Shown piece after piece: positions 1-64,000 of a DNA stretch of 64,000 nucleotides. The DNA comes from Vicinamibacteria bacterium. Its GTDB lineage: Bacteria > Acidobacteriota > Vicinamibacteria > Fen-336 > JAGNNV01. Within the stretch, counting starts at the first letter, position 1, and each line of letters begins with the position of its first letter. The position numbers and the translations under genes are program-made. The notes beneath the pieces are model-generated. The model worked only from the letters and a program-made list of their open reading frames with translations. It was not told the DNA's origin and ran no database searches. The stretch spans positions 61,182-125,181 of the forward strand of contig JANODX010000123.1 of assembly GCA_031412915.1 (NCBI GenBank), read 5' to 3'.

Positions 1-628
1 CCGATCGCATGAGTTGACGGAACGATTCCACCTGCTCGGCATCGAGGGCGCGGAAGTCATGAAGCGAATCGCCGAAGGTCTGATAGGGCTCCGCCTCCGA
101 GGGTTCGATCGAGGCGCGAATCCGGCTTCCCCGAATGCTTCGCACCACAAGGCGGACGCCGAAGCCGATGACGGCCAGGCGAAATCGAAATCGCTCCTGA
201 TAGCTGTTCAGAAGCTCGTGGAGCCACCGGGCGATCATGGCCAGGGATCGCGTCTCCGCGAGCTTGAACTGTGCCGGGGCCACGGGAGGCACGGGAACGA
301 TGGCTTCGGCCATTCGAGCGTAAACGGAGAGGGCGCGCAGCCGCCGGTGGCGGTCTTCGGCCGCCTCTTCGATGGTGTCAGCGGCGATCGCGAGCAGGCG
401 AACCGCCTCGTCATAGGAGAGGGAGGCCTTGCGCGTCAGGGCCAGACCATAGGCGTGGCTCGCTATCTCCGTGTCCTCGGCCAGACGGCTTCGGAGGGCC
501 TCCGTGGCCTTCTCCGCGCGCCCTGAGAGGACGAAACCCCAGCGCTTGAGGGCGCGGGTTCGGTCGAACCGGCCAAAGACCAGCACCACGACGGCCGCGG
601 CGACGGCCGCGAGGATGACCGGGGTCAC
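1..628 (-). CDS. hypothetical membrane-anchored protein (C-terminally truncated by window edge); last gene of GAF/Fis regulator operon
   Basis: Not in ORF track (runs off the edge). My manual minus-strand translation from GTG at 626-628 gives MTPVILAAVAAAVVVLVFGRFDRTRALKRWG... It stays open to position 1 with strong GC3 bias, unlike the antisense + ORF at 14..526. Its GTG start sits 1 nt after the upstream gene's TGA stop (ends 636). Confidence 0.55.
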   Translation of the reverse strand, partial: MTPVILAAVAAAVVVLVFGRFDRTRALKRWGFVLSGRAEKATEALRSRLAEDTEIASHAYGLALTRKASLSYDEAVRLLAIAADTIEEAAEDRHRRLRALSVYARMAEAIVPVPPVAPAQFKLAETRSLAMIARWLHELLNSYQERFRFRLAVIGFGVRLVVRSIRGSRIRASIEPSEAEPYQTFGDSLHDFRALDAEQVESFRQLMRS

Positions 629-635
629 TGCGGGC

Positions 636-1256
636 TCAGTCTTTCCGCCAGGCGGCGTAGGCCAGGTATGCAACCATGACATCGTAGGCCGCGGCATTCG
701 CCAGGTTCACTTCAGGAACTACCCCCCAGCCCTGGCGCCGGATGATGTCCACAAGGATGACGAACACAACCTGATAGGGAACGTACGCCATAACGATCGC
801 CTTCGTGAAAGCGGCAACCGGTATCTGGTACCAGACGATCAACAGCGAAACGCAGGTGAGGCACCAGACGCCCGCCGTGGTGACCGAAGGCTGATAGCGC
901 CAGAACTCCGAATACGCGGCCTGCGGGGTGAGAAGGAAGACGGCCGACGTGGAGACCAGGACCAGCCCCCCGAGGACCTTTCGAGCGCTGTCGGCAATGC
1001 CTCGAAACGCCGAAAACACCCGGAACGACAATTCGACAGACATGCCGAACAGAAGGGAGTCGTAGATGCCCTGCTTGGCCAAAAACGCGGCCGGCGTATA
1101 GCGGTTGGGAAAGAGTAGAAAAAAAGCCGTGAACCCTACCGAAGCAGCCATCAGCACCGAAAAGGAAACGCACGCCGTCGTCTTCCGCCTCCCGACAATC
1201 CCTAGAACCGCGGCGCCAGCGAGCCCGAGTCCAAGAAACGCAAGTGCTCGATGCAT
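636..1256 (-). CDS. polytopic membrane protein of unknown function
   Basis: 206-aa ORF with several hydrophobic helices; good GC3 bias. Lies between the regulator gene and the downstream membrane-anchored ORF on the same strand. Confidence 0.7.
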   Translation of the reverse strand: MHRALAFLGLGLAGAAVLGIVGRRKTTACVSFSVLMAASVGFTAFFLLFPNRYTPAAFLAKQGIYDSLLFGMSVELSFRVFSAFRGIADSARKVLGGLVLVSTSAVFLLTPQAAYSEFWRYQPSVTTAGVWCLTCVSLLIVWYQIPVAAFTKAIVMAYVPYQVVFVILVDIIRRQGWGVVPEVNLANAAAYDVMVAYLAYAAWRKD

Positions 1257-1278
1257 CCGTGGGCCGGTCCCCGCAGGG

Positions 1279-1869
1279 TCAGGCGGTCAAAGGCTTCGCC
1301 AGCCGCGGCACCTTCTTGCGCGCGATCCCAAACGCGGCGAGACGCATATAAAGCGTCCGTCTGGTGACCCCCAGTTCGCGAGAGACCCTGGCGATGTTCC
1401 AGTCGTTCTCTTCCAGGATACGGAGGATGTTGACGCGGTTGGCGTCGGCTCGATTGACGCTTTGAGCGCGGCTCGGGACAGTCTCGCCGAGGGCGCCCAC
1501 CGCCTTGGCCATTCCCAGCAGAAACGGGCGCAGTTCCTTCGCGTCCGCAGTACGCGGGTTCTCCAGATACACCCAGCCCAGGCGCGAATCACCGTCGCCC
1601 GTCACGGTGGCCAGAGCGAACCCGGGCGCCGAGACCACCTCGCCTTTGGCCAGCCGGGCGCGATGGTCCTGGAAGCGAATGGGCAGGCTCCCAAGACCAG
1701 CCAAAGACAGCCGGTACGAAAGGAACACACTCGCGTTGTCGCCCTGGGGCACGAGGACCGCCCCGCCTTCGGCTCCGGCGACATCGCACATCTTCGCCAA
1801 CAAACGATCGGCGGACCGGCGAGGGTCGTCGGCCACCAAGCTTTCAATCATTGATCCAAGTGAGTTCAT
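1279..1869 (-). CDS. GAF-domain transcriptional regulator with C-terminal Fis-type HTH
   Basis: C-terminus NILRILEENDWNIARVSRELGVTRRTLYMRL is a classic Fis/NtrC HTH_8 motif; the N-terminal ~150 aa is GAF-like. Confidence 0.8.
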   Translation of the reverse strand: MNSLGSMIESLVADDPRRSADRLLAKMCDVAGAEGGAVLVPQGDNASVFLSYRLSLAGLGSLPIRFQDHRARLAKGEVVSAPGFALATVTGDGDSRLGWVYLENPRTADAKELRPFLLGMAKAVGALGETVPSRAQSVNRADANRVNILRILEENDWNIARVSRELGVTRRTLYMRLAAFGIARKKVPRLAKPLTA

Positions 1870-1998
1870 AGGGCCGCAAGTCTGTCAAGAAAGGCTGGGA
1901 AAGACAAGACCTGAGTGTATACATACTGTATAGTGTCGTCAGTCGCCCGTTCTCCGCCCTCCAACACAGGGCACATCAAAAAAAGGGAAATCAAAGTC

Positions 1999-2145
1999 AT
2001 GCGAATCTTCTGGTCGATCTTCTTTCTTGGCTCACTCCTGCTCGTTGGCTTCGATGTCACAGAGCGGCGACAACTCGGCAACAGACCCCAGGCTTCCCCG
2101 GCGATAGCCGGAGACCCTTTGGGATTTCCAACACCAAACCAATAG
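1999..2145 (+). CDS. candidate small membrane protein (48 aa) in the long tkt/regulator intergenic region
   Basis: ATG at 1999, preceded by AAAGGGAAATCAAAGTC (AAGGGA about 10 nt upstream). Encodes MRIFWSIFFLGSLLLVGFDV... with one hydrophobic helix. GC3 is weak in the second half, so it may be non-coding. Confidence 0.25.
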   Translation: MRIFWSIFFLGSLLLVGFDVTERRQLGNRPQASPAIAGDPLGFPTPNQ

Positions 2146-2269
2146 GCAGATCGGCGGGGCTGGCCACGCCGTGCGCCGGACCCGCCATCTTGTTGTCATC
2201 ACGTCCCGCGGAGATTAGTGTTGCGCTTCGTTGCGGGAGACCGCAGCACTTCTTTCCCTGGGGATTTTG

Positions 2270-4333
2270 ATGACGACCACCGACGTAGACCAGCTTTCCG
2301 TAAATACCATCCGCACCCTGTCCATGGACGCGGTGCAACAGGCGAACTCCGGCCACCCGGGCACCCCCATGGCGATGGCGCCCGTCGCTTACACGCTCTG
2401 GCAGCGGCATCTGCGCTTCGATCCGAACCATCCAATCTGGCCGGACCGGGATCGTTTCGTTCTCTCGATGGGCCACGCTTCGATGCTGCTCTACTCGCTC
2501 CTGCATCTGGCGGGGGTGAAGGCGGTCAATCCAAAATACGAGACCCTGGGCGACCTGTCGGTGCCGCTCGACGACATCAAGCGGTTCCGCCAGCTCGACA
2601 GCCGTTGCCCCGGCCACCCGGAGTACCGCTGGACCTCGGGCATCGAAACGACGACCGGCCCGCTCGGGCAGGGCGTGGCCACCAGCGTCGGCATGGCCAT
2701 CGCTTCGAAGTGGCTGGCCTCCCGCTACAACAAACCCGGCTTCGAGATGTTCACCCACCGCGTCTATGCCATGGCGGGCGATGGTTGCATGATGGAAGGC
2801 ATCTCTCACGAGGCGGCGTCCCTCGCCGGCCACCTCCAACTCGACAACCTCTGCTGGATCTACGACAACAACAAGATCACCATCGAAGGCCACACCCACC
2901 TCGCCTTCAGCGAGGATGTGGCCACCCGCTTCATGGCCTACGGATGGAACGTAACCCGGGTGGGCGACGCCAACGATCTCGACATGCTCGATCGCGCCTA
3001 CCAGAACGCGAAGCAGACACAGGGGCGTCCGACCCTCATCATCGTGGACTCCCACATCGGCTACGGCGCTCCGACCAAGCAGGATTCGCACTCCGCTCAC
3101 GGCGAACCGCTCGGGGCCGCGGAGATCAAGGGCACCAAGCGCTTCTACGGCTGGCCCGAGGACGCGCAGTTCCTGGTTCCCCCCGAAGTCCCGGAGCACT
3201 TCGCCAGGAATATGGGCGCCCGCGGCGGCTCGCTCCGCAACGACTGGATCGCAAAACTGGCGGAGTACCGCAAAGCCAACCCGGGCCTCGCCGACGAACT
3301 CGACCGCATGCAGAAGCGGCAACTGCCGGAGGGCTGGGACAAGAACATACCGGTGTTCCCCACCGACGCCAAGGGCCTGGCCGGCCGCGATGCCTCCCAG
3401 AAGGTCCTGAACGCGCTGGCCCAGAGCGTGCCCTGGCTGCTGGGCGGCTCGGCTGATCTGGCCCCCTCCACCAAGACGCGGCTCACCTTCGAGGGCGCCG
3501 GCGACTTCCTCGCCGATTCCTATGGCGGCAGGAACTTCCACTTCGGCATTCGCGAACACGCGATGGGCGCGATCATGAACGGCCTGTCGCTCTCCAAGGT
3601 CCGGCCCTACGGCTCGGGCTTCCTGATCTTCAGCGACTACGGGCGCGCTCCCATTCGGCTCGCCGCGATCATGGAAATCCCGGTCATCTACGTGTTCACG
3701 CACGATTCCATCGGGGTGGGCGAAGATGGCCCGACCCACCAGCCGGTCGAACAGGTGCTCTCCCTGCGCGCCATCCCCGGCCTCATCACCATCCGTCCGG
3801 CCGACTCGAACGAGGTCGCGGAAGCGTGGCGATTCCTGATGCCCCAGAAGCACGAGCCGGTGGCTCTGATCCTCACCCGGCAGGCCTTGCCCACCCTGGA
3901 TCGCACGAAGTACGCAGCGGCCAGCGGATTGGCGAAGGGCGCTTACGTTCTTGCCGATGCTCCGGGCGGAAAGCCCGACGTCATCCTGATCGGCACGGGC
4001 AGCGAGGTTTCACTGTGCCTGCAGGCCTACGAGCAGCTCGCGAAGGATGGAGTCAAGAGCCGGGTGGTGAGCATGCCGTCGTGGGAACTCTTCGAGCATC
4101 AGTCTCAGGATTACCGCGATCAGGTTCTGCCGCCCTCGATCACCGCGCGCATTTCCGTGGAATTCGGCACGACCCTGGGGTGGAGCCAGTATGTCGGCAC
4201 GAAGGGCCAGGCCATCGGAATGAAGACCTTCGGCGCCTCGGCGCCCCTTCAGGAGTTGCAGAAGAAGTTCGGCTTCCGGATCGAGGACGTGGTCGCCGCG
4301 GCCAAGGCGCAGGTTTCGGGAGCGAAGGGCTGA
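2270..4333 (+). CDS. tkt: transketolase
   Basis: Unmistakable transketolase sequence (SGHPG, TPP-binding and C-terminal domains). ORF track starts at TTG 2231; the ATG at 2270 (MTTTDVDQLSVNTIR) is the likelier start. Confidence 0.95.
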   Translation: MTTTDVDQLSVNTIRTLSMDAVQQANSGHPGTPMAMAPVAYTLWQRHLRFDPNHPIWPDRDRFVLSMGHASMLLYSLLHLAGVKAVNPKYETLGDLSVPLDDIKRFRQLDSRCPGHPEYRWTSGIETTTGPLGQGVATSVGMAIASKWLASRYNKPGFEMFTHRVYAMAGDGCMMEGISHEAASLAGHLQLDNLCWIYDNNKITIEGHTHLAFSEDVATRFMAYGWNVTRVGDANDLDMLDRAYQNAKQTQGRPTLIIVDSHIGYGAPTKQDSHSAHGEPLGAAEIKGTKRFYGWPEDAQFLVPPEVPEHFARNMGARGGSLRNDWIAKLAEYRKANPGLADELDRMQKRQLPEGWDKNIPVFPTDAKGLAGRDASQKVLNALAQSVPWLLGGSADLAPSTKTRLTFEGAGDFLADSYGGRNFHFGIREHAMGAIMNGLSLSKVRPYGSGFLIFSDYGRAPIRLAAIMEIPVIYVFTHDSIGVGEDGPTHQPVEQVLSLRAIPGLITIRPADSNEVAEAWRFLMPQKHEPVALILTRQALPTLDRTKYAAASGLAKGAYVLADAPGGKPDVILIGTGSEVSLCLQAYEQLAKDGVKSRVVSMPSWELFEHQSQDYRDQVLPPSITARISVEFGTTLGWSQYVGTKGQAIGMKTFGASAPLQELQKKFGFRIEDVVAAAKAQVSGAKG

Positions 4334-4776
4334 TGCGCATCGTCGTCGGATCCGATCACGCGGGCTTCCTCCTCAAACAGGAGATCGCGGAAGCGCTTCG
4401 CAAAGAGGGCCATGACGTGGTCGATGTGGGCACCCACTCGACCGCCCCGGTCGACTATCCGGACTCGGCCGCCGCGGTCGGGCGCGCGGTGACCGAGGGA
4501 AGGGCCGAACGGGGCGTCTTGATCTGCGGCAGCGGGGTGGGCGCATCGGTCGCCGCGAACAAGGTCAAGGGCGTGCGGGCGGCCATCTGCCACGACACCT
4601 ATTCCGCGCACCAGGGCGTCGAGCACGACGACATGAACGTTCTGGTCCTGGGGGGAAGGATCGTCGGCCCCGCACTTGCCGGTGAGCTTGTCCGAGCGTT
4701 CGTGGGCGCACGGTATACCGCCGAGGAGCGGCACGCGCGGAGGCTCGCCAAGGTCACGGCCCTCGACAACCGATAG
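4333..4776 (+). CDS. rpiB: ribose-5-phosphate isomerase B
   Basis: MRIVVGSDHAGFLLKQEI...ICGSGVGASVAANKV...RIVG is the RpiB/LacAB family. Its ATG overlaps the tkt stop (TGATG), suggesting translational coupling. Confidence 0.9.
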   Translation: MRIVVGSDHAGFLLKQEIAEALRKEGHDVVDVGTHSTAPVDYPDSAAAVGRAVTEGRAERGVLICGSGVGASVAANKVKGVRAAICHDTYSAHQGVEHDDMNVLVLGGRIVGPALAGELVRAFVGARYTAEERHARRLAKVTALDNR

Positions 4777-4930
4777 AAGCGCGGGCCCCGCCACTCGCCC
4801 CGGGCACGAGCAGAGCCAGCCGGCCCAAGGAGGCGGGACGTCGGGGGCGAGTTTCTCGTGCCGTGGTTGGGGAAAGGCCGCTAGAATCCAGAGCCAACAC
4901 AGTCGACTATTCGACGGAGGCTTCAAGAAC

Positions 4931-5383
4931 ATGCGTCACGCCCTATCCATCCTCATTCTGCTGGCCGGCTCAACGGCGAGCCCGGCGCTCGACAAGGCCG
5001 CAGACCAGAAGAAGGCCCAGCAGGAAATCCAGGGCCTCCTGGCCCGCCTCACCGCTGCCGAGAACGCCGGCGATGCGGCGGCGGCGGCTCAGTGCTACGA
5101 GAGCGACGGTTTGCTGTTGCCCTCATCGGGCGAGCCCGTGAGGGGTCGAGAGGACATTACCAGGCGTTACGCCGCGATATTTGCCGGAAAGACCCCTCGG
5201 TCGCCGCTCGAGTCCGAGGAGCTTTGGGTGTTGGACGACCTGGCGGTCAGTCGCGGAGCCACAAAGGGGCCCGCACCTCGCCGAACCGTGCGGAACCGCT
5301 ACGTGATGACCCTCAAGCGTCACGGCGACGCGTGGGAGATTCACAGCCTCGTCTGGAACGCCGCGACCGCCGCCCTGAAGTAG
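4931..5383 (+). CDS. secreted NTF2/SnoaL-like (DUF4440-type) protein
   Basis: Signal peptide MRHALSILILLAGSTASPA, followed by an NTF2-like fold pattern (ITRRYAAIF..., ...WEIHSLVWN). Confidence 0.7.
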   Translation: MRHALSILILLAGSTASPALDKAADQKKAQQEIQGLLARLTAAENAGDAAAAAQCYESDGLLLPSSGEPVRGREDITRRYAAIFAGKTPRSPLESEELWVLDDLAVSRGATKGPAPRRTVRNRYVMTLKRHGDAWEIHSLVWNAATAALK

Positions 5384-5424
5384 TCCCCGAGGCCCGGGTC
5401 GCCCCGCGTCCCGCCCCCGGTTTC

Positions 5425-7170
5425 CTAGCGAATCTCAAAGCCGTAGGGAAGACGAGCCCACACCGTCCGCGACTGCTTCACAACCCTCGCGCGAAAACGG
5501 GCGGCCAGCGCTTCGGGCGAGAACGAGGCCTGGGCGCCCATGCCGTCCCATCCATCGGCGCTTTCGAACAGCCGATCGAAAGCGCCCTTCGGGGCGGGCA
5601 GGACGACCACGGCCACATCCTGAGCGGCCGCGAGTTTGGCCTTGTCCTTGGCCAGGGCCAGGGCGCGGTCGAAGCCGCCGAGTTCGTCCACCAGCCCGAC
5701 TCTCCTCGCTTCGGCACCCGTCCAGACACGCCCCTGCGCGATCTCGTGCACCGCGTCCACGTCCATGTGCCGATGCTCGGCCACCAGCGCCAGGAATCGA
5801 TCGTAGAACCGGGAGGCCAGGCCTTCGACCTTGGCCTGATCCTCGAGGGTCCACCGCCGCGAGGGGCTCGCGAACGATCCTCCCCGGCCGAAGTCGACGT
5901 AGTCGTTCGTGAGCCCGAGCTTTTCGAAGAGACCCTTCAGCACGAACTTGCCGAAGAACACGCCGATCGAGCCGGTGATGGTGGTAGGGCCGGCCACGAT
6001 GGCCGTCGCGGGCGCCGAGATGTAATAGCCGCCCGACGCGGCGTAATCGCCCATGCTCACAATGACCGGCTTTCGGGCCGCCGTGTTCTCGACTTCCCGG
6101 GCAATGACGTCGGAGGCCGAGCCGGAGCCGCCCGGAGAGTTCACTCTGAGAACAACCGCCTTGACCGAGTCGTCGGCCGTCGCATCCCTCAGCGCTTCGG
6201 CCACGGTGTCGGAGCCGGCCACCACGGAGGAGGCGAGACCCCCCCCTTGACTCTCCCCGGAGAGAATCTCGCCGTCGACGAAGATCAGAGCGATCTTTGG
6301 CCGGGTGTCGAAGACGCCGCCCTGGTCTCGAAAATCTCGGAGGTGACGGTGAGTTTCGCCCGCGGAGTCGAGCGCTTCTTCGGGATAGGCCAGTTTGTCC
6401 ACGAGTCCGGCATCGAGAGCCGAGGCGCCGTCGTAGGGGCCGGCTGAAATCAGTTCCTCGATCTCCGCTTCGGTCTTCTTCCTGGACTTGGACACCGCGG
6501 CGATGTACTCGTTGTAGAGACCGCCGACCAGGGACTCCATCTGTTCCCGGTGGGCCGCCGTGAACTTCTTCTCGGTGTACTGATTGGGCGCGTTCTTGTA
6601 CTTTCCCATCGCCACGAACTGGGCTTCGATCCCGAACTTGTCGAAGGCGCCCTTGAGAAACATCACCTCGGCCGAGAGGCCATGAATCTGCAGGATGGCT
6701 TCGGGCAGGACCACGATCTCGTCGGCCGCCGAGGCGATGTAGTACTCCATGTTGCCGCTGTCTTCGAGAAACGCGGTGATCTTCTTTCCCCTGGCGCGGA
6801 CCCGCAGGAGCGCGTCGCGGAGTTCGGCCGCGCGGGCCCAACCCAGATCGGCGGCCCCGATCCGGACGAAGACCGTCTTCAGATTCGGTTCGTTCGCGGC
6901 CCGGTCGATGGCTCGGATGACGCTCGGGAACGAGGGAGCGGTGTCTCCCGAAAACGACATCTGGAGGGTGGGCGAGGGATTCTCATCGAAAGCGCCGTCG
7001 AGCGATATCGACAGCACGTTCGAGTGACCGTCCGATTTTTCGTCCGAAGACGACAGCCCCTGCTGCTGGACAAAGTAGGCAAGCCCGCCGAGCACGGCGG
7101 CGGTGAAAGACCCCACGAGCACCAGGCCCACCGTGATCCAAAGAAAGCGTTTCCTGCGCGAGGTGGTCAT
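5425..7170 (-). CDS. sppA: signal peptide peptidase SppA (protease IV, 67K type)
   Basis: N-terminal TM, two ClpP/crotonase-like halves, and the motif SMGDYAASGGYYISAPATAIVAGPTTITGSIGV. Confidence 0.9.
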   Translation of the reverse strand: MTTSRRKRFLWITVGLVLVGSFTAAVLGGLAYFVQQQGLSSSDEKSDGHSNVLSISLDGAFDENPSPTLQMSFSGDTAPSFPSVIRAIDRAANEPNLKTVFVRIGAADLGWARAAELRDALLRVRARGKKITAFLEDSGNMEYYIASAADEIVVLPEAILQIHGLSAEVMFLKGAFDKFGIEAQFVAMGKYKNAPNQYTEKKFTAAHREQMESLVGGLYNEYIAAVSKSRKKTEAEIEELISAGPYDGASALDAGLVDKLAYPEEALDSAGETHRHLRDFRDQGGVFDTRPKIALIFVDGEILSGESQGGGLASSVVAGSDTVAEALRDATADDSVKAVVLRVNSPGGSGSASDVIAREVENTAARKPVIVSMGDYAASGGYYISAPATAIVAGPTTITGSIGVFFGKFVLKGLFEKLGLTNDYVDFGRGGSFASPSRRWTLEDQAKVEGLASRFYDRFLALVAEHRHMDVDAVHEIAQGRVWTGAEARRVGLVDELGGFDRALALAKDKAKLAAAQDVAVVVLPAPKGAFDRLFESADGWDGMGAQASFSPEALAARFRARVVKQSRTVWARLPYGFEIR

Positions 7171-7218
7171 GAGCGGGTCAATTCCTCTGTTCCTTCGGGC
7201 GCCGTCATCGCGACAGAC

Positions 7219-7938
7219 CTAGAGAGGTGCCAACTCGTCCACCTTCTTGCGCGCCTCCGGAGCGTAGGGGCTTTGGGGGTGCCGGTTGACGAGATCGGTG
7301 TAGGCCCGACGGGCTTCGAGCGCATCGCCCGAGGCCTCGAGAGACTCCGCGAGCCCGAAGAGAAGGCGGTCCTTGGGAAGGCCGGACGCCTCATCGGCGG
7401 ACAGGGTCTGGTAGAGAGAAGCGGCTTCTTTGAAGCGACCGGCTCGCAGCACGATTTCCGCGACGCGGAGACGGGCCATGGCGGGCTCGAGGGCGACCGG
7501 ATCGCGCAGGGCGGCGATCGGCTTGAGCGCCTGCTCGGCCTCGCTGAGCTTGCCGAGTTCGGCGAGGCACAGGGCCGAGTAGTAGCGAGCCCTTCGCCCC
7601 ACGGACATCGAGCCGTAGCTCGAGGCGACCTCATCGAACATGGTCTTGGCCTTTTGGAACTTGTCGTTTGCAGTCTTGAAGGTTTCCGCCGACCCGGGCG
7701 CTCCGGCGGCCGAGGCTCCGACCTCGGCGTGGAAAACCTCGGTGGCTCGGGCGAAGGCTGCTTCCGCCCTGGAGGCTCGGAATTTCTGGCCGTAGTAGAG
7801 GCCGAAGAGGACCAGGAAGAGGGCCAGGATCGCGAGCGCCGGCTTCACCACCTCCGCCCGTGAGAGGAAGGTGCGGGCCTCCTTGAGCGCGTCGCCCACT
7901 TCATCGCGACGCAGTTCGTTCTTGAGTTCCTTGTCCAA
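7219..7938 (-). CDS. TPR-repeat membrane-anchored protein (YfgM-like)
   Basis: N-terminal TM (PALAILALFLVLFGLYY) followed by TPR-like helical repeats. Confidence 0.7.
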   Translation of the reverse strand: MDKELKNELRRDEVGDALKEARTFLSRAEVVKPALAILALFLVLFGLYYGQKFRASRAEAAFARATEVFHAEVGASAAGAPGSAETFKTANDKFQKAKTMFDEVASSYGSMSVGRRARYYSALCLAELGKLSEAEQALKPIAALRDPVALEPAMARLRVAEIVLRAGRFKEAASLYQTLSADEASGLPKDRLLFGLAESLEASGDALEARRAYTDLVNRHPQSPYAPEARKKVDELAPL

Positions 7939-7966
7939 TGCCAGTCACCTGTGAGTTCGACGAATG

Positions 7967-8043
7967 TGGTGTGCCCGGAGGGACTTGAACCCCCAACCTT
8001 GAGCTTAGGATGCTCCTGCTCTATCCAGTTGAGCTACGGGCGC
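7967..8043 (-). tRNA. tRNA-Arg (anticodon CCT)
   Basis: Hand-folded cloverleaf on the minus strand: GCGCCCG-TA-GCTC-AACTGGATA-GAGC-A-GGAGC-ATCCTAA-GCTCA-AGGTT-GGGGG-TTCAAGT-CCCTC-CGGGCAC-A-CCA. T-loop TTCAAGT, U33, A37, CCA encoded. Caveats: one C:A mismatch at 2-71 and a G:A at 27-43. Confidence 0.75.
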
Positions 8044-8118
8044 GCGCGTGTGTGCGACGCTTCAGTTTACCCGCCCGGCGCGTCCCGAGAAGAGCCCGGT
8101 CGACATCTATCGGCGTCT

Positions 8119-8637
8119 TCAGTAGTGCAACACGCTGATAACGGGGTGAGGAGCGAGTCGGGAGCGGCCTTCGAGAGAGTCGAGTTCGATCAGAAACGCG
8201 AAGCCCGCCACCACGCCCGCCGAGCGACTCACCAGACGGCCGGCCGCCTCGGCGGTGCCGCCGGTGGCCAGAAGATCGTCCACGATCAGCGCCCTTTCCC
8301 CGGCAAGGAGAGCGTCTTCATGCATCTCCAGCGTGTCCTCCCCGTACTCGAGGGCGTACGTCTCCCGGACGGTGGCGCGCGGAAGTTTCCTCGGCTTGCG
8401 CATCGGAACGAAGCCACACTGCCGCTTTTGGGCGAGGGCGGCGCCGAAAATGAAGCCGCGGCTCTCGATGCCGACGATTCGCGTGTACGTGAGGCCCCGG
8501 GTGCATTGATCGAGTTGCTCGACCGCGGCCGCGAAGGCGAGGCCGTCGGCCAGCAGGGGGGTTATGTCCCGAAAGAGAATTCCCGGCTTGGGAAAATCCG
8601 GGACGTCGTGGATGAAGTCTTTCAGGTTGAGAGGCAT
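8119..8637 (-). CDS. apt: adenine phosphoribosyltransferase
   Basis: MPLNLKDFIHDVPDFPKPGILFRDITPLL...VDDLLATGGT is a canonical Apt/PRTase motif. Start set at the internal ATG (complement 8635-8637); the longer ORF-track N-terminus is not Apt-like. Confidence 0.9.
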   Translation of the reverse strand: MPLNLKDFIHDVPDFPKPGILFRDITPLLADGLAFAAAVEQLDQCTRGLTYTRIVGIESRGFIFGAALAQKRQCGFVPMRKPRKLPRATVRETYALEYGEDTLEMHEDALLAGERALIVDDLLATGGTAEAAGRLVSRSAGVVAGFAFLIELDSLEGRSRLAPHPVISVLHY

Positions 8638-8703
8638 GGTGCCGTGGATTCTATGACCGCGCCGACCTTGACCCCTGCTCGAACCGACAACTAACGTACG
8701 ACC

Positions 8704-11238
8704 GTGCTGAGGGGCTTCAAGGGAAACTGCTTCCGAACCGCGCGGTGGGCCGGTCTCGTCTTCGGACTCGTCCCCTTCGTCTCCGCCCAGACTCCGCCTC
8801 CGCACCTGATCGTGATCGTGGCGGAAGGCACGGGATTCCCCTTCGAGGATCCCTCCTTCGCGAAGCATCCAGCGCTGAGACGCCTGCGGATGAACTCACG
8901 GCCCTTCGACTCCACGTTCGCGAGCGATGCGGCCTGGACCCGGACGACCGAAACGCTGCTCGGCGGCGTGCGTGCGCCGGGCGGCGCGGCCTTGGTCGGG
9001 GCGCTCAAGGCCCGAAGGTATGTGTCGTCGTCCCTTACGCCCTCGGGAGGCGAGACCTGGGGCTTCGACCGCAGTGTGACGACCGGCCCCTCGGACATCG
9101 CGGCCCGCGCACTGGAGGCGGTTGACGCAGCGGGGAAACAGCCCGCGTTCGTTTTCGCCTTGCTGGACCTGAAGAACCTGGCCGGAGCCTTCCCTGGAAC
9201 CCCAGTGGAAGCACCGCCGCTAAGCGTCCCCGCGATTTCCCTTTTCGACAGGGGCGCTCTCGACGCGGTGGGCCTGCGGGCGATTCCGGCTCCCCGCGAC
9301 CCTGGAGATCGCGCAGCCCTCGCGGGCCGACGGAACGCCGCCTTCGGCGTCCTCGATCGCGAGGTCGCGGCACTGACGAAGGGCCTCGAGGCGCGCGGCC
9401 TTGGCTCGAAGACCGTGATCGCCCTGGTTTCGACCGGCCCGGCTCCAAGGCCCGAGCGCGCCGCACCGTCGCGGCCGGATCTGCTTTTCGAGGACTGGCT
9501 GCGCGGCCTCGTCCTGATCCAGGCGCCTGGCATGGTCGCACCGGGAGTCGCCGCCGCTTCCCTCGCCCTGGTGGCGGACCTGGCGCCCACGATCGCGGCA
9601 CTTGGCGGGGCGACCCTGGCGAAGGTTGCGGGCCTGGACCTCACCCCGGCGATTCGTGACCCGAAGCGACTCGTCCGGCAGACTCTTCTCCTGAGCGCCT
9701 CACGCGAACCCCCGCTCGTGGGCCGCAGCGTAAGGTCGCCGAACTTCAGGTTCACCCAGTGGCCGGACGGAAGTGAGGAACTCTTCGACGAGGACGCAGA
9801 TCCGAGAGAGTGGAAGAACCTCGCCAAAGTTCCCGCCATGCGGGGGCGAAGAAACGAGATGGCGAAGCGGCTCGTTCTCCCCGGCCGGCCGGCCCCCGCC
9901 TCCAAGGCGCGCCCCGCCCCGATCGGAGGGCGGCCCAACGTCCTCATGATCATCGTCGACGACCTCACCGCGCAATACCCGCAGTTCGGCCTGGCGAAGA
10001 CGCCCAACCTCGATCGCCTGCGCGCCCGCGGCCGGGTCTATGAGAAGGCGTATGCCCCAGCGCCTTTTTGCGTTCCGTCCCGCGCCGCCTTCCTCTCCGG
10101 ACTCTCGCCCGCTCGCCTCGAACTCCATCGCAAGGACGCCTTTGCCGAGGTCTTCACCGCTCGAATTCCGCTCATTCAGGAACAGTTCCGAACGAATGGC
10201 TACTTCACGGCCTCGGTCGGGAAGGTCTGGGACAGCCAGCCGGGCGAGAAGCGAGGGTGGGATGTGAACGAATGGCAGCCGCCGCTCCCGGAGGGCGCGA
10301 TCGAAGCCGCTCCTGAGCTGATGAAGAACATGCCGGTGGAGGCAGGGCCCACCGACAACGAGGACGAAGTCGAAGGAGACGGCCGCAGAGCGCGTTTCGC
10401 GGTCCAGGTTCTGGAGGAGAAACGCGACAAGCCCCTCTTTCTCGCTCTCGGCCTGGTCCGGCCCCATGTGGCCTGGGTGGCGCCCCGGAAATACTTCGAC
10501 CTCTACCCCGCCGATCAGATCAAGTTCACGCCCGCCCCCGCGGACGACACCAGCGACATCCCGGCGATCGCGATCAAGAATCGACCGCAGGCCCTGCCCG
10601 GCCTGATGCTGTCCGGCCGCGAGCCCGCGGGATTCTCGGACGACCCGGACGAGGCGCGGCGCGGCATCGCCGCCTATCTGGCCTGCGTGAGTTTCATGGA
10701 CGCTCAACTCGGCGTCGTTCTCGACGCTCTCGATCGACAGGACCTCTGGAAAAACACGATCGTCGTCTTCTTCGGAGACAACGGTCACCACTTCGGAGAT
10801 CACGGGGGCCTGTGGCGGAAAGACACGCTCTTCGAGGAATCGCTGCGCGTGCCAATGGTCATCGTAAGCCCGGGCCTGCCCCAGCCCGGCGCTTCCACCT
10901 CGGCCCTGGCGGATCTGATCGATGTGTATCCCACTCTCGTGGACCTCACGGGTATCGCCCGCCCGGGGACGCTGGACGGCGTCTCTCTCGCGCCCACCCT
11001 GAACGATCCCCTGGCGACGGTGCAGGACTCCTTGATTCAATACCGGCCGACCGAACCGTCCAGGACGGGCTACTCCCTTCGCACTCTGCAGTATCGCTAC
11101 ACCCTGTGGCCGGACGGCTCTGAGGAGCTGTACGACCTGGGTGTCGATCCCGCGGGGCGGAAAGACCTTTCTGAGGACTCCAAGCAGGCCGCGACCCTGG
11201 CCTCACTGAGGCGAAGAATCGAAGCCCGAGTCCGATAG
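8704..11238 (+). CDS. tandem-domain sulfatase: degenerate N-terminal sulfatase-like domain plus active C-terminal arylsulfatase domain; secreted
   Basis: GTG start and signal peptide. The C-terminal half has the sulfatase signature PFCVPSRAAFLSG (C-x-P-S-R), LMIIVDDL and GDHG. The N-terminal half is sulfatase-like but lacks the Cys/Ser-x-P-x-R motif (DAAWTRTTETL). Confidence 0.85.
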   Translation: MLRGFKGNCFRTARWAGLVFGLVPFVSAQTPPPHLIVIVAEGTGFPFEDPSFAKHPALRRLRMNSRPFDSTFASDAAWTRTTETLLGGVRAPGGAALVGALKARRYVSSSLTPSGGETWGFDRSVTTGPSDIAARALEAVDAAGKQPAFVFALLDLKNLAGAFPGTPVEAPPLSVPAISLFDRGALDAVGLRAIPAPRDPGDRAALAGRRNAAFGVLDREVAALTKGLEARGLGSKTVIALVSTGPAPRPERAAPSRPDLLFEDWLRGLVLIQAPGMVAPGVAAASLALVADLAPTIAALGGATLAKVAGLDLTPAIRDPKRLVRQTLLLSASREPPLVGRSVRSPNFRFTQWPDGSEELFDEDADPREWKNLAKVPAMRGRRNEMAKRLVLPGRPAPASKARPAPIGGRPNVLMIIVDDLTAQYPQFGLAKTPNLDRLRARGRVYEKAYAPAPFCVPSRAAFLSGLSPARLELHRKDAFAEVFTARIPLIQEQFRTNGYFTASVGKVWDSQPGEKRGWDVNEWQPPLPEGAIEAAPELMKNMPVEAGPTDNEDEVEGDGRRARFAVQVLEEKRDKPLFLALGLVRPHVAWVAPRKYFDLYPADQIKFTPAPADDTSDIPAIAIKNRPQALPGLMLSGREPAGFSDDPDEARRGIAAYLACVSFMDAQLGVVLDALDRQDLWKNTIVVFFGDNGHHFGDHGGLWRKDTLFEESLRVPMVIVSPGLPQPGASTSALADLIDVYPTLVDLTGIARPGTLDGVSLAPTLNDPLATVQDSLIQYRPTEPSRTGYSLRTLQYRYTLWPDGSEELYDLGVDPAGRKDLSEDSKQAATLASLRRRIEARVR

Positions 11239-40805: not shown

Positions 40806-40962
40806 CCCTTCGACGCTTCGACAGGCTCAGCGCAGGCAAGCTCAGGGACCCTGGCAGACTGCAAACGGTGGCTGAGCTCGTCGAAGCCACCGTCGATCCC
40901 TTCGACGCTTCGACAGGCTCAGCGCAGGCAAGCTCAGGGACCCTTCGACAGGCTCAGGGACC
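40806..40962. repeat. REP-like interspersed repeat cluster (two 45-bp units and one 20-bp partial unit) downstream of ihfB
   Basis: CCCTTCGACGCTTCGACAGGCTCAGCGCAGGCAAGCTCAGGGACC occurs at 40806-40850 and 40898-40942. CTTCGACAGGCTCAGGGACC follows at 40943-40962. The same family occurs inverted at 62172-62262. Confidence 0.85.
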
Positions 40963-54823: not shown

Positions 54824-55140
54824 CCGGGGTTTTTGGGGGGGCCGGGTCCGTGTCTGGCCCCTGGGCCCGGGCACTTGGCCGCAGCCTCGGCGACCCCGGA
54901 ATCGATTTGCCGGATTCACTCGGGCAAATCGAGCGTAATGACGACTCGACGAGGCGGAGGCCGGGGGGTTGTAGGGGGGGCCGGGTCCGTGTCTGGCCCT
55001 TGGGCCCGGACACTTGGCCGCAGCCTCGGCGACTCCGAAGTCGATCCGCCTGATTCACTCGGGCGGATCGAGCATGATGACGACTCGACGAGGCGGAGGC
55101 CGGGGGGTTGTAGGGGGGGCCGGGTCCGTGTCTGGCCCCC
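54824..55140. repeat. 138-bp tandem repeat, 2.3 copies, each with a conserved hairpin showing compensatory base changes and G7-8 homopolymer tracts
   Basis: Copies at about 54824-54961 and 54962-55099, with a partial third at 55100-55140. Hairpin GATTTGCC-ggattcactcg-GGCAAATC in copy 1 versus GATCCGCC-tgattcactcg-GGCGGATC in copy 2. Confidence 0.85.
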
Positions 55141-59792: not shown

Positions 59793-61396
59793 GACTCCCC
59801 CCTCGCAACTTCCCGAAAGATCACGCGCCGGCCGAAAGCATCCTGGAAGAAGTCGCTGCGCGCGAGTGTGGCCAGCCGTTCCATGGTCAGGTCGCCCGCC
59901 CCTTCCACTTCCAGGGCGATGACCGAGCCCTCCTGCCTCACCCGGAGGTTCTTGACCTTCTGCTGATGGTCGGAGTCGAGGGCATTGGCGAGGCGCAGGA
60001 TGGCGGCCAGCTTGTTGACCACGATCTTGGCCTCCCGATCGAGGGCCATGTAGGGAATGTGGGAGCGCTGGGGAAGGCCCCGCCGGTGATAGCGGGCGAT
60101 GTTCGAAACCACCAGAAGATCGTCGCGCGACAACCCGAAGATCTCCGCAGCCGAGATCAGATACTGGGAATGCTTGTGATGGGCCCGAAGGTTCACGAAC
60201 AGTCCGATGTCGTGGAGGAGGGCGGCGACCTCCAGGAGAAGGCGATCGCGCGGATCGAGACCGTGCTCCGACTTAAGTTCGTCAAAGAGGCGCAGGGACA
60301 CGAAGGCGATGTGGCGCGCGTGCCTGGCGTCGTAGTTGTACTTCTCCCCCAGGGCATGAGCGCTGGCCAGAACCTGGCGGGAGAAGCCTTCGAGCCCAAG
60401 CCCTGCCTCCGAGCGGGCGAGATCGAAGATCAGGCCATGCCGCAGGGTGGCGTTCGAAACCGTGATGGTGAGAGCCTTAGTGGCTCGGACGAGTTCCGAG
60501 TAGACGAGGAGGGCCGGGGTCAGGGTCTCGGCTTCGGCCTGGGACAGGTTGTACGCGCCGAGTATGGTGTCGACGTCCTTGGCCGCTATCTCGCCGCAAA
60601 CCTTGAGGAAAGCCTCGCGGGGAATGGCCGACGACGGCTGGGCCTCTCCTGATCCCAGCACCCGGGCCACCAGACGAGCATCGGCGCCCAGGGCAATGAA
60701 GTGTTTCACCTGGTCCAGCGGGAGTTCGCGGCGGATGTCCGCGATGACGTTCTTGATGTGCCGAAGGATGAGCCGCTGGAAGTGCGCGGACGTGCCCTGA
60801 AACGCGGCGAAGCTCTGTCGCAATCGGATCGATCCGATGGCGTAGGTTCCCGAGTGGGTCGGCTCGCCTTCATGCAGGGTTGAAAGGTCCGCGCTGCCTC
60901 CGCCCACCTCCGCAACCAGGCAGGTTTCGGTCGCGATCTCGGGCATGGATTTGAGCGACTCGCGGATCGCGAGGTAGGTCAACCGGTTCTCTTCCGAGCC
61001 ATCGATGACCTCGACGTCGATCCCGGTCCGAACCCGGATACGGTCGAGGACGGTGTCGCGGTTGGTGGCCTCGCGGAGGGCGGAAGTGGCGACGGCGCGG
61101 TACCGAACCACCCCGAAGGTATCCATGATCGCCCGGAAGCCCTCCATGGCCTTCAGCACCGCTTCGACGGTGGGCTGGCCGATGCGGCCGCTGGTGAAAG
61201 CGTCCTTGCCGATGAGAACGCCGCGTGAGGCCTCTTCGACGATCCGCATGGAGTCGCCCTCACCTTCGGCGATGATCAGGCGAACCGCCGAGGCGCCGAG
61301 GTCCAGAGCCGCGAATGGCTTGGGCAACTCCTTGGGCGGCGGGGGGGCGTCGTCCTTGGGCTTTCGGGTGAGGGTTCGCTTGCGGGGGGCGGCCAT
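59789..61396 (-). CDS. ppx: exopolyphosphatase / guanosine pentaphosphate phosphohydrolase (Ppx/GppA) with C-terminal HD domain
   Basis: ASKHA fold (LDLGASAVRL, IDGSEENR) plus HD motif (HDIGLFVNLRAHHKHS). Overlaps the ppk start by 4 nt. Confidence 0.9.
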   Translation of the reverse strand: MAAPRKRTLTRKPKDDAPPPPKELPKPFAALDLGASAVRLIIAEGEGDSMRIVEEASRGVLIGKDAFTSGRIGQPTVEAVLKAMEGFRAIMDTFGVVRYRAVATSALREATNRDTVLDRIRVRTGIDVEVIDGSEENRLTYLAIRESLKSMPEIATETCLVAEVGGGSADLSTLHEGEPTHSGTYAIGSIRLRQSFAAFQGTSAHFQRLILRHIKNVIADIRRELPLDQVKHFIALGADARLVARVLGSGEAQPSSAIPREAFLKVCGEIAAKDVDTILGAYNLSQAEAETLTPALLVYSELVRATKALTITVSNATLRHGLIFDLARSEAGLGLEGFSRQVLASAHALGEKYNYDARHARHIAFVSLRLFDELKSEHGLDPRDRLLLEVAALLHDIGLFVNLRAHHKHSQYLISAAEIFGLSRDDLLVVSNIARYHRRGLPQRSHIPYMALDREAKIVVNKLAAILRLANALDSDHQQKVKNLRVRQEGSVIALEVEGAGDLTMERLATLARSDFFQDAFGRRVIFREVARGES

Positions 61397-61506
61397 GAAC
61401 CTCTCAGTTTAGTCCTCCTGGACGGCGGCCCGGCCCCGTTCTCCGGCGCCCCTGAGGCGAATGGTTTAAGCGTCCTGTTGTGCGGAGTGGGAGATACTGC
61501 AGATCC

Positions 61507-62103
61507 ATGACCGCCCGCATTGCCCCTCTCGACGAACCTCTGAATCGTTTTCTCGAACTCTTCGAAAAAGCCAGGAAGGTGGAGGCCAACGACGCGACGG
61601 CGGTGGCGCTCGCCACCGCGACCATGCACGGGCGCCCCTCCCTGCGCATGGTGCTGCTGAAGGACTTCGATCTCCGCGGCTTCGTGTTCTTCACCAACTA
61701 TCAAAGCCGTAAGGCCACGGAACTCGAATCCAATTCCCAGGCCGCGATGACGTTCTACTGGCCCGGGATGCATGTGCAGGTGAGAGTCGAAGGCACGGTG
61801 GACCGGGTGAGCGCCGAAGAATCGGACGCCTACTTCGACTCCCGCCCGGTCGGGCACCGGCTCGGGGCGTGGTCTTCCGATCAATCGCGCGAGATCGAGT
61901 CGAAGGCGGATCTTTTCGCGAAGTTCGAGGAGGTCGAGAGGCGCTTCGCCGGCCACGAGGTTCCAAGACCCGCCCACTGGGGCGGCTATCGAATCACGCC
62001 GGAGTCGATCGAGTTCTGGTTCGGCAAGGAAAACCGGATGCACGAGCGCGATATCTACACCCGGGCAGGAAACGGCTGGACGGTGAAGCTGCTGCAGCCG
62101 TAG
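61507..62103 (+). CDS. pdxH: pyridoxamine 5'-phosphate oxidase
   Basis: RMVLLKDFDLRGFVFFTNYQSRKA...FYWP...IEFW...RLHDR-like C-terminus. ATG at 61507 (the ORF track's earlier ATG adds 9 aa). Confidence 0.9.
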   Translation: MTARIAPLDEPLNRFLELFEKARKVEANDATAVALATATMHGRPSLRMVLLKDFDLRGFVFFTNYQSRKATELESNSQAAMTFYWPGMHVQVRVEGTVDRVSAEESDAYFDSRPVGHRLGAWSSDQSREIESKADLFAKFEEVERRFAGHEVPRPAHWGGYRITPESIEFWFGKENRMHERDIYTRAGNGWTVKLLQP

Positions 62104-62171
62104 CTCCTCCGCTCCCATTGCGAGCGCAGGGCGGACTATGTCCGTGACTGTTTGGAAGAACGCGGCCCAAC

Positions 62172-62262
62172 GGACCCTGAGCCTGTCGAAGGGTGGACCC
62201 TGAGCCTGCGTGCGCTGAGCTGGTCGAAGCGTCGAAGGGTGGACCCTGAGCCTGTCGAAGGG
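62172..62262. repeat. REP-like interspersed repeat cluster (same family as 40806-40962, opposite orientation) downstream of pdxH
   Basis: GGACCCTGAGCCTGTCGAAGGG, TGGACCCTGAGCCTGCGTGCGCTGAGCTGGTCGAAGCGTCGAAGGG and TGGACCCTGAGCCTGTCGAAGGG are reverse complements of the 40.8-kb units. Confidence 0.85.
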
Positions 62263-62339
62263 CTCTCGGAGGTGTTTCTCAGGAGCGGAGGGATCTCCAA
62301 GTGAACAACAAGCATCTTCAACCCACCTATGCCGAATTG

Positions 62340-63949
62340 CCGTCACCATCACAGGCCCAACCCGCGGGTCCCAAGGGCGAGGCGGGCATGCCCTCCGGCG
62401 GGACCGCTCCTCACCTCGGGCTGAACCACGAAACTCCGGAATCGCTACTCGGCTCGTCGCTTAGTTGGGCGGAAGGTTCAGACAGACACCGGCGACTCCG
62501 CCCAAAATCCCGCAGGATGGGCACGCCCGCCTCACCCACGGGACCCGCTCCATTCTCATGGCTGGCACGAGGATCAGATAGCACCAAGGAAGCAGTCGAG
62601 GCGGCCGGCGAGCATCGACCCAACGGTGATCGAAAGGATTCAGCGTACGATAGTCATTGGGGCTCGTCAATGAACCACCCACTCAGCCGGAAGAATTGCA
62701 AGCCCGCAGTCGGCCAGAAGTTTGCAGCTGGCGGGGACGACTACCTCGTCGCAGGCAAACTCGGGAATGGCGCTGTGGGCCTCGTACGGAAGGTCCGGCG
62801 ACAACGCGATGGTCGTGGCTTCGCAATGAAGCTGCTGGCACCAGATCCCAAGTACATCGACGTTGAGGCGTTCGACGACGTTGCCGCCCGATTCAAACGC
62901 GAGGGCGAGCGTGGGACGAAGCTGGAACACCGGGGTCTCGTGGGGGTAGAGGCGTACGTTGAGAATGCCAACGGCAGCGCGTTCGCTCTTCGGCGACCGA
63001 GCAATCCTTTCATTGTCATGGAATGGGTGCGAGGCTCCACGCTGGAAAGCCATATCAGAAGGGAGGAGCGACGGCGCGTTGAGAAGAACGAGCGTAGGAG
63101 CTTCTTCGTGACGCCCGAAAGGCTTTCGATCGCCATCGAAGTCGTGGGTGCGCTCCGCTATCTGCACCAGAAGAAGCTGGTTCATCGCGATGTCAAGCCC
63201 GCCAACATCTTCTTGCCGCCGGTAAACGACATCTCCCGCCGCCGTGCCAAGCTTGGCGATTTCGGGATTATGAAATGGGGTGACTTCCAAGCCTCGATCA
63301 GCAGCGGGACCTTGACGGTTACGACGCAACGAGGCCTTGGCACACTCAAGTACATGTCGCCTGAGCAGGCTCTTGCCCCGAAAGACGTCACGGTTCGTAG
63401 CGACGTCTACTCGCTTGGTATCACCCTCTTCGAGCTCTTCACAACGCAGATCCTTCCAACGCCTCACCACGTTTTTGAGGTGCTGAACGCACGCCTCACC
63501 CGGGGAACCACGACCAGCCGCTATATGGTCATGGGCTACGCTCTCAGTGCCGAGGATGCGGGCGTCGCCGAACTTGTCATGGACATGCACCTCCGAGGTG
63601 CCTCTGGAAGACCCCCGATAGACAAGGTTGCAGGCCGACTCGTCTGGGAATGGGAACAGCGGACCGGGTCGGAGTGGTAGTTGGTCCCTGCTGCCTTGGC
63701 CTCGCGGGTTGGTCAAGAGCCCCAGCCACAAGAATGGAGCGGTTCCCGGGGGCGAGGCGGGCGTGCCCATCCTGCGGGATTTTGGGCCCGAGTCGCCGGA
63801 TTCCGTCAGCGGTGTTCGGGCCCAATAAGCGACGAGCCGAGTAGCGATTCCGGAGTCTCGCCGTTCAGCCCGAGGTGAGGAGCGCTCCCGCTGGAGGGCA
63901 TGCCCGCCTCGCCCTTGGGAACCGCGGGTTGGGCCTGTGATGGTGACGG
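62340..63949. mobile_element. 1.6-kb foldback/MITE-like composite element: about 228-bp imperfect terminal inverted repeats (62340-62565 and 63722-63949) enclosing a single Ser/Thr kinase gene
   Basis: The reverse complement of 62340-62565 aligns with 63722-63949 at roughly 85-90 % identity over the outer about 90 bp and inner about 70 bp, with a diverged middle. Sharp outer termini CCGTCACCATCACAGGCCCAACCCGCGGG. No transposase inside. Confidence 0.6.
62670..63680 (+). CDS. standalone eukaryotic-like Ser/Thr protein kinase (336 aa) carried between the inverted repeats
   Basis: GKLGNGAVGLV (G-loop), AMK, HRDVKPANIF, KLGDFG, KYMSPEQ, DVYSLG are all present. The ORF track's upstream extension (from GTG 62301) runs through the left inverted repeat and is low-complexity, so I start at ATG 62670. 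Confidence 0.8.
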   Translation: MNHPLSRKNCKPAVGQKFAAGGDDYLVAGKLGNGAVGLVRKVRRQRDGRGFAMKLLAPDPKYIDVEAFDDVAARFKREGERGTKLEHRGLVGVEAYVENANGSAFALRRPSNPFIVMEWVRGSTLESHIRREERRRVEKNERRSFFVTPERLSIAIEVVGALRYLHQKKLVHRDVKPANIFLPPVNDISRRRAKLGDFGIMKWGDFQASISSGTLTVTTQRGLGTLKYMSPEQALAPKDVTVRSDVYSLGITLFELFTTQILPTPHHVFEVLNARLTRGTTTSRYMVMGYALSAEDAGVAELVMDMHLRGASGRPPIDKVAGRLVWEWEQRTGSEW

Positions 63950-64000
63950 AGCAACCCGACCAAGGGAGCCGGGTGTGCCTGACAAACCTGCGCAGAACCT

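Follow-up and report, generated by a model that had tools for sequence, protein, structure and literature searches.

A protein kinase gene between two inverted copies of a hairpin repeat at a strain-variable site in Vicinamibacteria

Introduction

How does a single protein kinase gene come to lie between two long inverted repeats on a bacterial chromosome, and did the repeats bring it there? We addressed this question in a 64,000-nt stretch of DNA (hereafter the window) from a Vicinamibacteria bacterium of the phylum Acidobacteriota (GenBank assembly GCA_031412915.1, contig JANODX010000123.1, positions 61,182 to 125,181 of the forward strand), close to whose right end a 1.6-kb block (62340-63949) holds a gene for a small Hanks-type Ser/Thr kinase between two arms in inverted orientation. 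An earlier note on this DNA, made from the letters alone, had described the arms as terminal inverted repeats; it proposed a pair of miniature inverted-repeat transposable elements (MITEs) with a kinase cargo or, alternatively, a foldback element controlling kinase expression, and it raised the possibility of a mobile defence kinase resembling Stk2. The reading that we favour, and regard as somewhat probable, is that the block is a strain-variable insertion between the convergent genes pdxH and a resistance-nodulation-division (RND) gene, composed of a foreign kinase cassette and two inverted repeat units.

Results

Anatomy of the block

By BLASTN the two arms (62340-62565 and 63722-63949) align over 226/228 nt with 88.6% identity and with indels (E 2.7e-80), much as the earlier note had drawn them, namely as imperfect arms of about 228 bp. 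A repeat search divided the match into two collinear segments, 62340-62474/63815-63949 (135 nt, 93%) and 62500-62565/63722-63787 (66 nt, 92%). The outer termini had been called exact, and the outermost 28 nt (CCGTCACCATCACAGGCCCAACCCGCGG; 62340-62367 and 63922-63949) do match exactly despite the overall difference of 11% between the arms, whose ends read CCGTCACCATCACAGG…. As had also been noticed, the cargo consists of one intact kinase gene, without a transposase; the remaining open reading frames (ORFs) of the block, including a 367-aa antisense ORF, have no Pfam match. A long ORF (62301-63680) runs through the left arm, and we placed the start of the kinase at the ATG at 62670 because all homologues are 333-355 aa long and begin at the equivalent position. 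The parts of the block and its right-hand edge are listed below, together with their counterparts in a metagenome contig (L026) that carries the same arrangement.

Left arm, 62340-62565, plus strand: complete unit of the 'L-type' (nhmmer E 7e-69); ortholog at L026:9677-9895, 94.5% identical.
Spacer 5' of the kinase start, 62566-62669, plus strand: 104 nt that move with the kinase rather than with the arm; 103/104 identical to L026, where the flanks are about 93% identical.
Kinase, 62670-63680, plus strand: 336 aa, intact, kinase-domain-only Hanks-type Ser/Thr kinase (Pfam Pkinase 3e-31).
Spacer from the kinase stop to the right arm, 63681-63721: 41 nt, 36/41 identical to L026.
Right arm, 63722-63949, minus strand: complete 'R-type' unit, inverted (nhmmer E 3e-67); ortholog at L026:10620-10830, 92% identical.
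Tract of low divergence between the window and L026, 62490-63683: 3 substitutions away from a deletion junction.
Window tail, 63950-64000: 51 nt.

The 104-nt spacer contains no sigma-70-like promoter that we could find and shares nothing with the upstream regions of kinase homologues, and the search for promoter-like and terminator-like sites found none. The 51-nt tail has no stop codon in its minus-strand frames and no nucleotide similarity to the 3' ends of the RND genes in two relatives (L022 and L026). Because the arms have diverged and the independent assembly of L026 repeats the arrangement, the block is not an assembly artefact, in line with the original argument against an assembly duplication.

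Absence of the block from close relatives

Upstream of the block lies pdxH, for which many orthologues exist (75-99% identity). The left flank of the window and the corresponding loci of relatives without the block are as follows.

pdxH (pyridoxamine 5'-phosphate oxidase), 61507-62103, plus strand: left core flank (Pfam PNPOx_N 1e-23 and PNP_phzG_C).
Region of a cluster resembling repetitive extragenic palindromic (REP) sequences, 62104-62339: 23-nt unit GGACCCTGAGCCTGTCGAAGGGT, 4 copies at 62172-62262.
L018 (GCA_031362685.1): 81.6% nucleotide identity over 6.1 kb, ppk-ppx-pdxH retained; pdxH and a convergent RND pump gene separated by 126 nt; neither arm nor kinase.
L019/L020: about 80% nucleotide identity, ppk-ppx-pdxH retained; pdxH and the RND gene separated by 284 nt (L019); neither arm nor kinase.
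L022: 98.5% nucleotide identity over window 61247-62102 (ppx-pdxH); after pdxH 98 nt, then the RND C-terminus; no arm or kinase.

Similarity to every relative ends at the pdxH stop codon, at 62099-62103 for L018, L019 and L022 and at 62103 for L026. Since the pdxH-RND spacers of these empty-site relatives have neither arms nor kinase, the block represents an insertion relative to the ancestral state, and the empty site that a mobile origin predicts is present at the pdxH loci of L018, L019/L020 and L022. Judged from these comparisons, the block is an accessory insertion that is polymorphic among close relatives. Because the spacers are unrelated in sequence, base-level mapping of the insertion junctions is not possible. 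In each relative the spacer holds its own, different REP-like palindromes, and the REP-like cluster that the note had located downstream of pdxH in the window, which our search recovered, has no counterpart in L026 or in the empty-site relatives. One more GGACCCTGAGCCTGTCGAAGGGT motif lies on the minus strand at 40941-40961, 21 kb from the cluster; this is a second, separate small repeat family.

The arms as members of a hairpin repeat family

The earlier reading missed that each arm is itself a hairpin and a complete copy of a wider unit. The left arm forms a long hairpin through an internal inverted repeat (62364-62393/62519-62548), of which the right arm has the mirror pair, and the two arms fold with minimum free energies of -110 and -135 kcal/mol (z -4.9 and -7.8). 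The unit measures 226 nt, has subterminal inverted segments of 30-41 nt and matches no protein family. Family copies were sought in genome and metagenome collections by exact 23-mer and 20-mer words taken from the conserved core. These scans yielded 3 true extra copies, in two Vicinamibacteria metagenome-assembled genomes (MAGs) and one metagenome contig, besides three metagenome matches that were chance 20-mers; they gave no arm copy in the viral-contig, plasmid and phage collections. One further copy (P0251) came from a peptide search with the open frame of the arm. Within the 64-kb window neither BLASTN nor an nhmmer profile detected any copy beyond the pair. The note had suggested looking for the arm elsewhere, and solo copies indeed lie at unrelated loci in other Vicinamibacteria:

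L001, Vicinamibacteria MAG, minus strand: begins 6 nt past the stop codon of a cupin gene, upstream of an oxygenase gene.
L002, Vicinamibacteria MAG: begins at most 7 nt past the stop codon of a Rho-like ATPase gene; convergent with an amino-acid permease gene.
L012, JGI metagenome contig: 278 nt past rpsU; unit cut by the contig end.

No kinase lies near the unit at these three loci. In all, copies occur at five different loci in at least five genomes or contigs, with at most one pair per stretch examined. The unit has the orientation of its upstream gene and begins 0-38 nt past the stop codon at four sites (the Rho-like gene of L002, the cupin gene of L001, and pdxH and the RND gene of L026). 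Just upstream of the L012 unit, at 3032-3232, two overlapping ORF translations share LWRMDG.S.DRCAHS, which suggests that a short direct repeat may adjoin this unit. Taken together, the arms are apparently two complete copies of a dispersed non-coding unit of about 226 nt and not the ends proper of one transposon.

Conservation within the family is concentrated in an 80-nt core that is 89-95% identical among copies, with whole units at 71-89%. Folded as a consensus, six copies give 66 pairs, 93.9% of cells being paired, and at six pairs both sides have changed, a count that only 3/500 shuffles matched. In one variable helix (columns 129-137 with 162-171 of alignment A3), 4/9 pairs are compensated, and by our own reading of the alignment four different sequences occur there, each still able to form the helix. 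Folding is no worse on the opposite strands, and the G-U counts are mixed; by folding energies and G-U pairs, the strand signals contradict each other, the outer stem favouring one strand and the apical domain the other. Rfam 15 gave no match at E <= 1 over 61900-64000, and a search with the arm alone returned chance matches only, to eukaryotic miRNA and lncRNA models (E 0.7-9). A small protein gene was also considered for the unit, since the frame …PKGEAGMPSSGTAPHLGLN.ETPESLLGSSL… is open over the first ~135 nt in five copies, and was rejected: single-base indels break the frame in L001 and in the right arm of L026, and there is no Pfam match. Searches with the arm frame against 5.8 and 1.8 billion proteins recovered only the window's own 31-aa ORF call and one spurious ORF.

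Both window arms contain AACCC, a derived sequence that reads AATCC in every other family copy. Together with the identity of the outer 28 nt, this shared derived state suggests that the window arms may have undergone gene conversion with each other.

A second occupied genome and apparent exchange of the kinase tract

The 90% identity cluster of the window kinase is represented by a shortened version of 193 aa, encoded on the 221.5-kb ENA contig ERZ25039524:contig_29836, which is L026. Over 7.3 kb its ppk-ppx-pdxH flank shares 92.9% identity with the window, and the order of parts is the pdxH stop codon, 26 nt, left arm, spacer, kinase, right arm, 38 nt and the stop codon of the RND gene (minus strand). 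The kinase of L026 (10001-10582) has a 435-nt internal deletion (equivalent to window 63208-63642) and a frameshifted tail, from which it follows that the gene is dispensable there.

Divergence between the two genomes is strikingly uneven along the block. Identity amounts to 93.3% for ppx, 94.3% for pdxH, 94.5% for the left arm and 92.0% for the right arm, so that the arms differ by 6-8%, like the flanks, and rises to 537/538 and 38/38 positions in the 5' and 3' parts of the kinase. Counted as substitutions, there are 11 in 62356-62489, 3 in 62490-63683 (off the deletion junction) and 16 in 63684-63934; the kinase tract differs by 0.4%. As the L026 copy is a deletion pseudogene, purifying selection on it cannot explain this near-identity, and the kinase tract appears to have been exchanged recently between the lineages by recombination. 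The arms match type to type across the genomes, L-type with L-type and R-type with R-type, which means that they diverged before the window and L026 split; the arms at this locus apparently predate the latest kinase-tract exchange. As a side observation, a 139-nt tandem repeat is present in 2.3 copies at window 54826-55139 and in many more at L026 1540-2685 (a BLAST ladder of ~1.1 kb); this array is intergenic and variable in copy number.

The kinase and its family

The window kinase matches Pfam Pkinase (PF00069) with 109.2 bits against a cut-off of 31.7 (E 3e-31). Residues that are invariant in 16 family members are all kept (G29/G32/G34, K54, E78, H172-R173-D174 and N179), as are the further invariant residues D197-F198-G199 and S230-P231-E232, which bears out the earlier statement that all catalytic motifs are present. 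Conserved motifs outside the catalytic residues are an N-terminal HPLSRxxCxP and KWGDFQAS after DFG. The best 120 matches are mostly ~335-340 aa long and 54-71% identical over 88-100% of their length, and the few named sources among them are Acidobacteria, Blastocatellales, Planctomycetota and Desulfobacteraceae; the exact protein of the window is already on record at NCBI. The GC content at third codon positions is 0.71 in the kinase versus 0.82-0.85 in the neighbouring genes, a foreign composition by which the gene looks horizontally acquired.

Ten homologue loci represent ten different neighbourhoods. We found no common neighbour gene among the eight neighbourhoods compared, no flanking inverted repeats at the six loci checked and no copy of the arm unit at any of the ten. 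At E 1e-40 no homologues were found on plasmids, and phages gave only matches of at most 30% identity. With ten different neighbourhoods, and neighbours that include integrase and prophage genes, the kinase family looks like a mobile singleton.

Defence genes near kinase homologues

The possibility of a defence kinase was examined with family models. PADLOC reported mad6 (1e-44) and PD-T4-6 (4e-42, ~73% of the model) for the window kinase, the Stk2 hidden Markov model (HMM) matched it at E 2.5e-16 over 124/500 positions, and NCBIfam reported PknB at 2e-38 and MAD6 with 94 bits against a cut-off of 460. As a control, the kinase domain of M. tuberculosis PknB scored E 1.5e-175 on the PD-T4-6 models. 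Since this housekeeping kinase scores far higher, the PADLOC kinase matches carry no defence information; the Stk2-like link suggested earlier is non-specific, and PADLOC, NCBIfam and PHROGs together indicate generic kinase similarity only. No defence gene adjoins the kinase in the window. Neighbourhoods of homologues were as follows.

L003: integrase, kinase homologue and a cyclic-oligonucleotide-based antiphage signalling system (CBASS; 4TM effector 2e-21, cyclase 7e-48).
L015: kinase homologue near the candidate defence gene PDC-S32.
L007 and L024: kinase homologue near RelB and a DUF433/DUF5615 pair.
L027 (viral-contig collection), 127-5993: hsdM-hsdS-hsdR, with the kinase homologue directly behind hsdR.
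L028 (viral-contig collection), 374-10081: portal and terminase genes, kinase homologue, hsdM-hsdS.
L023: housekeeping neighbours (tig-clpP-clpX-lon and a uracil-DNA glycosylase (UDG) gene).

The L003 homologue is 67% identical and lies in an integrase-bounded island (1-8956) with a type I CBASS (4TM effector and CD-NTase). This island adjoins a mutagenesis cassette of RecA-like, ImuB-type polymerase and DnaE2 genes, and the same L003 protein is on record on at least 25 contigs. The L027 and L028 homologues are full-length and 49-50% identical; the L027 kinase is maybe frameshifted, as its ORF ends before the protein match does. Because homologues stand beside CBASS, type I restriction-modification (R-M) and toxin-antitoxin genes and integrases, an accessory kinase of defence-island type or toxin-like character is the most plausible description. 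By analogy with these neighbours, the window kinase itself may have a defence- or toxin-like role, a tentative assignment that we hold to be possible rather than probable.

Discussion

The reading that we somewhat favour has the block as an accessory insertion between the convergent pdxH and RND genes, present in some strains and absent from others. Its kinase cassette would consist of an intact, foreign kinase gene together with ~100 nt that belong to it on the upstream side, and the so-called terminal inverted repeats would be two members of a MITE- or REPIN-like family on either side of the cargo, in an architecture resembling that of a composite transposon. The unit is short and non-coding with inverted termini, as a MITE should be; two copies of the same element surround the cargo, and close relatives (L022, L018 and L019/L020) have an empty site. 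The earlier proposal of a MITE pair with cargo therefore stands in part: there is a dispersed non-coding repeat family, the kinase looks acquired and the block is absent from the pdxH loci of relatives, but it occupies one locus and has no target-site duplication. The arms may have had a role in capturing or moving the kinase. As to the history of the block, we favour, at somewhat less than even odds, that arm, kinase and arm came into the site as one piece and are now spread and homogenised among related strains by homologous recombination and not by transposition.

Several findings weigh against this reading. The composite is seen at one locus only, its occurrence in L026 being at the orthologous pdxH/RND site, so that a second genomic site is lacking. 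The only candidate target-site duplication around the composite is the 4-nt CCGA with shifts of 4 and 6 nt, and single units show no consistent one. In L026 the outermost 8-15 nt of the arms read differently. The L and R types had already separated by the time the window and L026 lineages parted, which means that the arm pair either is old or was built from two different family members. The family also looks low-copy: a profile search over 62 kb of the window and ~150 kb of other loci added 0 copies, and few matches turned up even in very large collections. On its right side the variable region extends past the window edge. Finally, many genes of L026, a contig from a metagenome assembly, are fragmented in the manner of error-prone long-read assemblies, which suggests indel errors, and a chimeric L026 consensus could mimic the 99.6% kinase tract.

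The strongest competitor holds that the block arose through independent events, each arm being a separate insertion at a gene 3' end (pdxH and RND) and the kinase cassette landing between them or, in a variant, being captured at the centre of an inverted doublet that was there first. Much agrees with it: the inverted arrangement mirrors the convergent flanking genes, units elsewhere are co-oriented with the upstream gene and lie 0-38 nt past its stop codon at four sites (278 nt past rpsU in L012), the arm types split before the window and L026 diverged, the arms, unlike the kinase tract, have diverged to the same degree as the flanks, a possible 6-nt direct repeat surrounds the left arm of L026 alone, and the site gathers different REP-like repeats in every relative. 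The position of the arms near stop codons, however, does not discriminate, because a unit inserted into a convergent spacer of 50-100 nt would end up there as well. Two further points speak against separate events, namely that the five alleles of the locus are all-or-none, empty sites lacking both arms and both kinase genomes having both, and that three low-copy insertions in 1.9 kb would be improbable at anything but a strong hotspot. We therefore consider independent events rather unlikely, albeit deserving of serious weight.

An active composite transposon of two MITEs, whose outer arm ends would be recognised by a transposase encoded elsewhere that moves the module, would account for the identity of the outer 28 nt in the window arms despite the 11% arm difference and for the empty site in a close relative; it would also suit a kinase family associated with integrases, prophages and defence genes, and has a precedent in the MITE pairs of Acinetobacter (PMC6382973). 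Yet no target-site duplication stood out from chance: the best direct repeat was the 6-nt ACGAGG at the left arm of L026 only, and repeats of at least 5 nt occur by chance in 22% of random position pairs. Both occupied sites are one locus, the arm termini of L026 are eroded or differ from those of the window, between the genomes the arms show no greater similarity than core DNA, the plasmid, phage and viral collections yielded no arm copy, and the shared AACCC is explained equally well by gene conversion between the arms and by functional ends. The idea that the arms serve as mobilising ends fares poorly, with outer termini that are not conserved in L026 and arms that predate the last exchange of the kinase tract, and we judge an active transposon improbable. 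As far as sequence comparison can tell, the movement documented here consists of insertion/deletion polymorphism and recombinational exchange, not of transposition. At the speculative end, the 226-nt unit might be an undescribed structured element that marks gene 3' ends, its inverted pair forming a portable capture-and-exchange module that holds a single-gene anti-phage kinase; we regard this as a long shot.

Control of kinase expression by the arms, either as leader and 3' hairpins or through double-stranded RNA formed between them, seems very improbable. The arms are very stable on either strand, their helices show covariation and the right arm begins 41 nt past the kinase stop, all of which would suit such a foldback. 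Against this, four other loci have a unit but no kinase and the ten kinase-homologue loci are without units, arms and kinase tract do not evolve in step, the search for promoter-like and terminator-like sites was negative and the RNA strand signals are contradictory. Two further readings, a small gene that was duplicated and then diverged as the origin of the arms and an assembly artefact behind the entire structure, can be dismissed, for the frame open across the first ~135 nt in five copies is broken by indels in L001 and the right arm of L026, as the note had argued from such indels, there is no Pfam match, protein searches were spurious only and the L026 assembly agrees.

In Acinetobacter, MITE pairs around cargo have been called 'comparable to a composite transposon', with a 439-bp MITE around class 1 integrons and a MITE-297 pair around a 76-kb mer region as examples (PMC6382973). 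The block shares with these pairs two short non-coding repeats around an apparently acquired cargo that lacks a transposase and is absent in close relatives. The copies of an Acinetobacter pair are nearly the same in sequence, come with target-site duplications and occur at several sites, often on plasmids, whereas the copies in the window are 11% apart, have no duplication and occupy one chromosomal locus, with a kinase as cargo. Integron mobilisation units provide a further example of MITE-flanked cargo. The unit also recalls the REP/BIME/REPIN, ERIC and Correia families of repeats in being non-coding, forming a hairpin and lying after genes or between convergent genes, at a site with other REP-like repeats. 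REP and REPIN units are typically 20-40 nt long (~100 nt as a doublet), number tens to hundreds of copies and have a gene for a REP-associated tyrosine transposase (RAYT) in the genome. The window unit differs from REP-type repeats in being longer (226 nt) and branched, with a near-invariant core of 80 nt and a covarying helix, and in being apparently low-copy, not present in hundreds. Like Stk2 of Staphylococcus and PD-T4-6 of E. coli, the window kinase is a stand-alone Hanks-type kinase without a sensor domain, and like defence kinases its family is patchy, with homologues beside integrases, prophage genes, CBASS, type I R-M and toxin-antitoxin genes; it has no specific sequence relationship to Stk2 or PD-T4-6.

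These observations bear on mobile DNA in Acidobacteriota, of which little is known: at this locus an accessory gene in a convergent spacer, bracketed by repeats, would be swapped between strains by recombination. A PD-T4-6 match in PADLOC is not evidence of a defence kinase, as the models do not separate such kinases from housekeeping PknB. The repeat family, which lies outside Rfam and has covariation support, can be studied as an RNA or a DNA structure. The kinase family, with proteins of ~337 aa that are 55-70% identical across several phyla and always singletons, is a reasonable candidate for a single-gene defence or toxin kinase.

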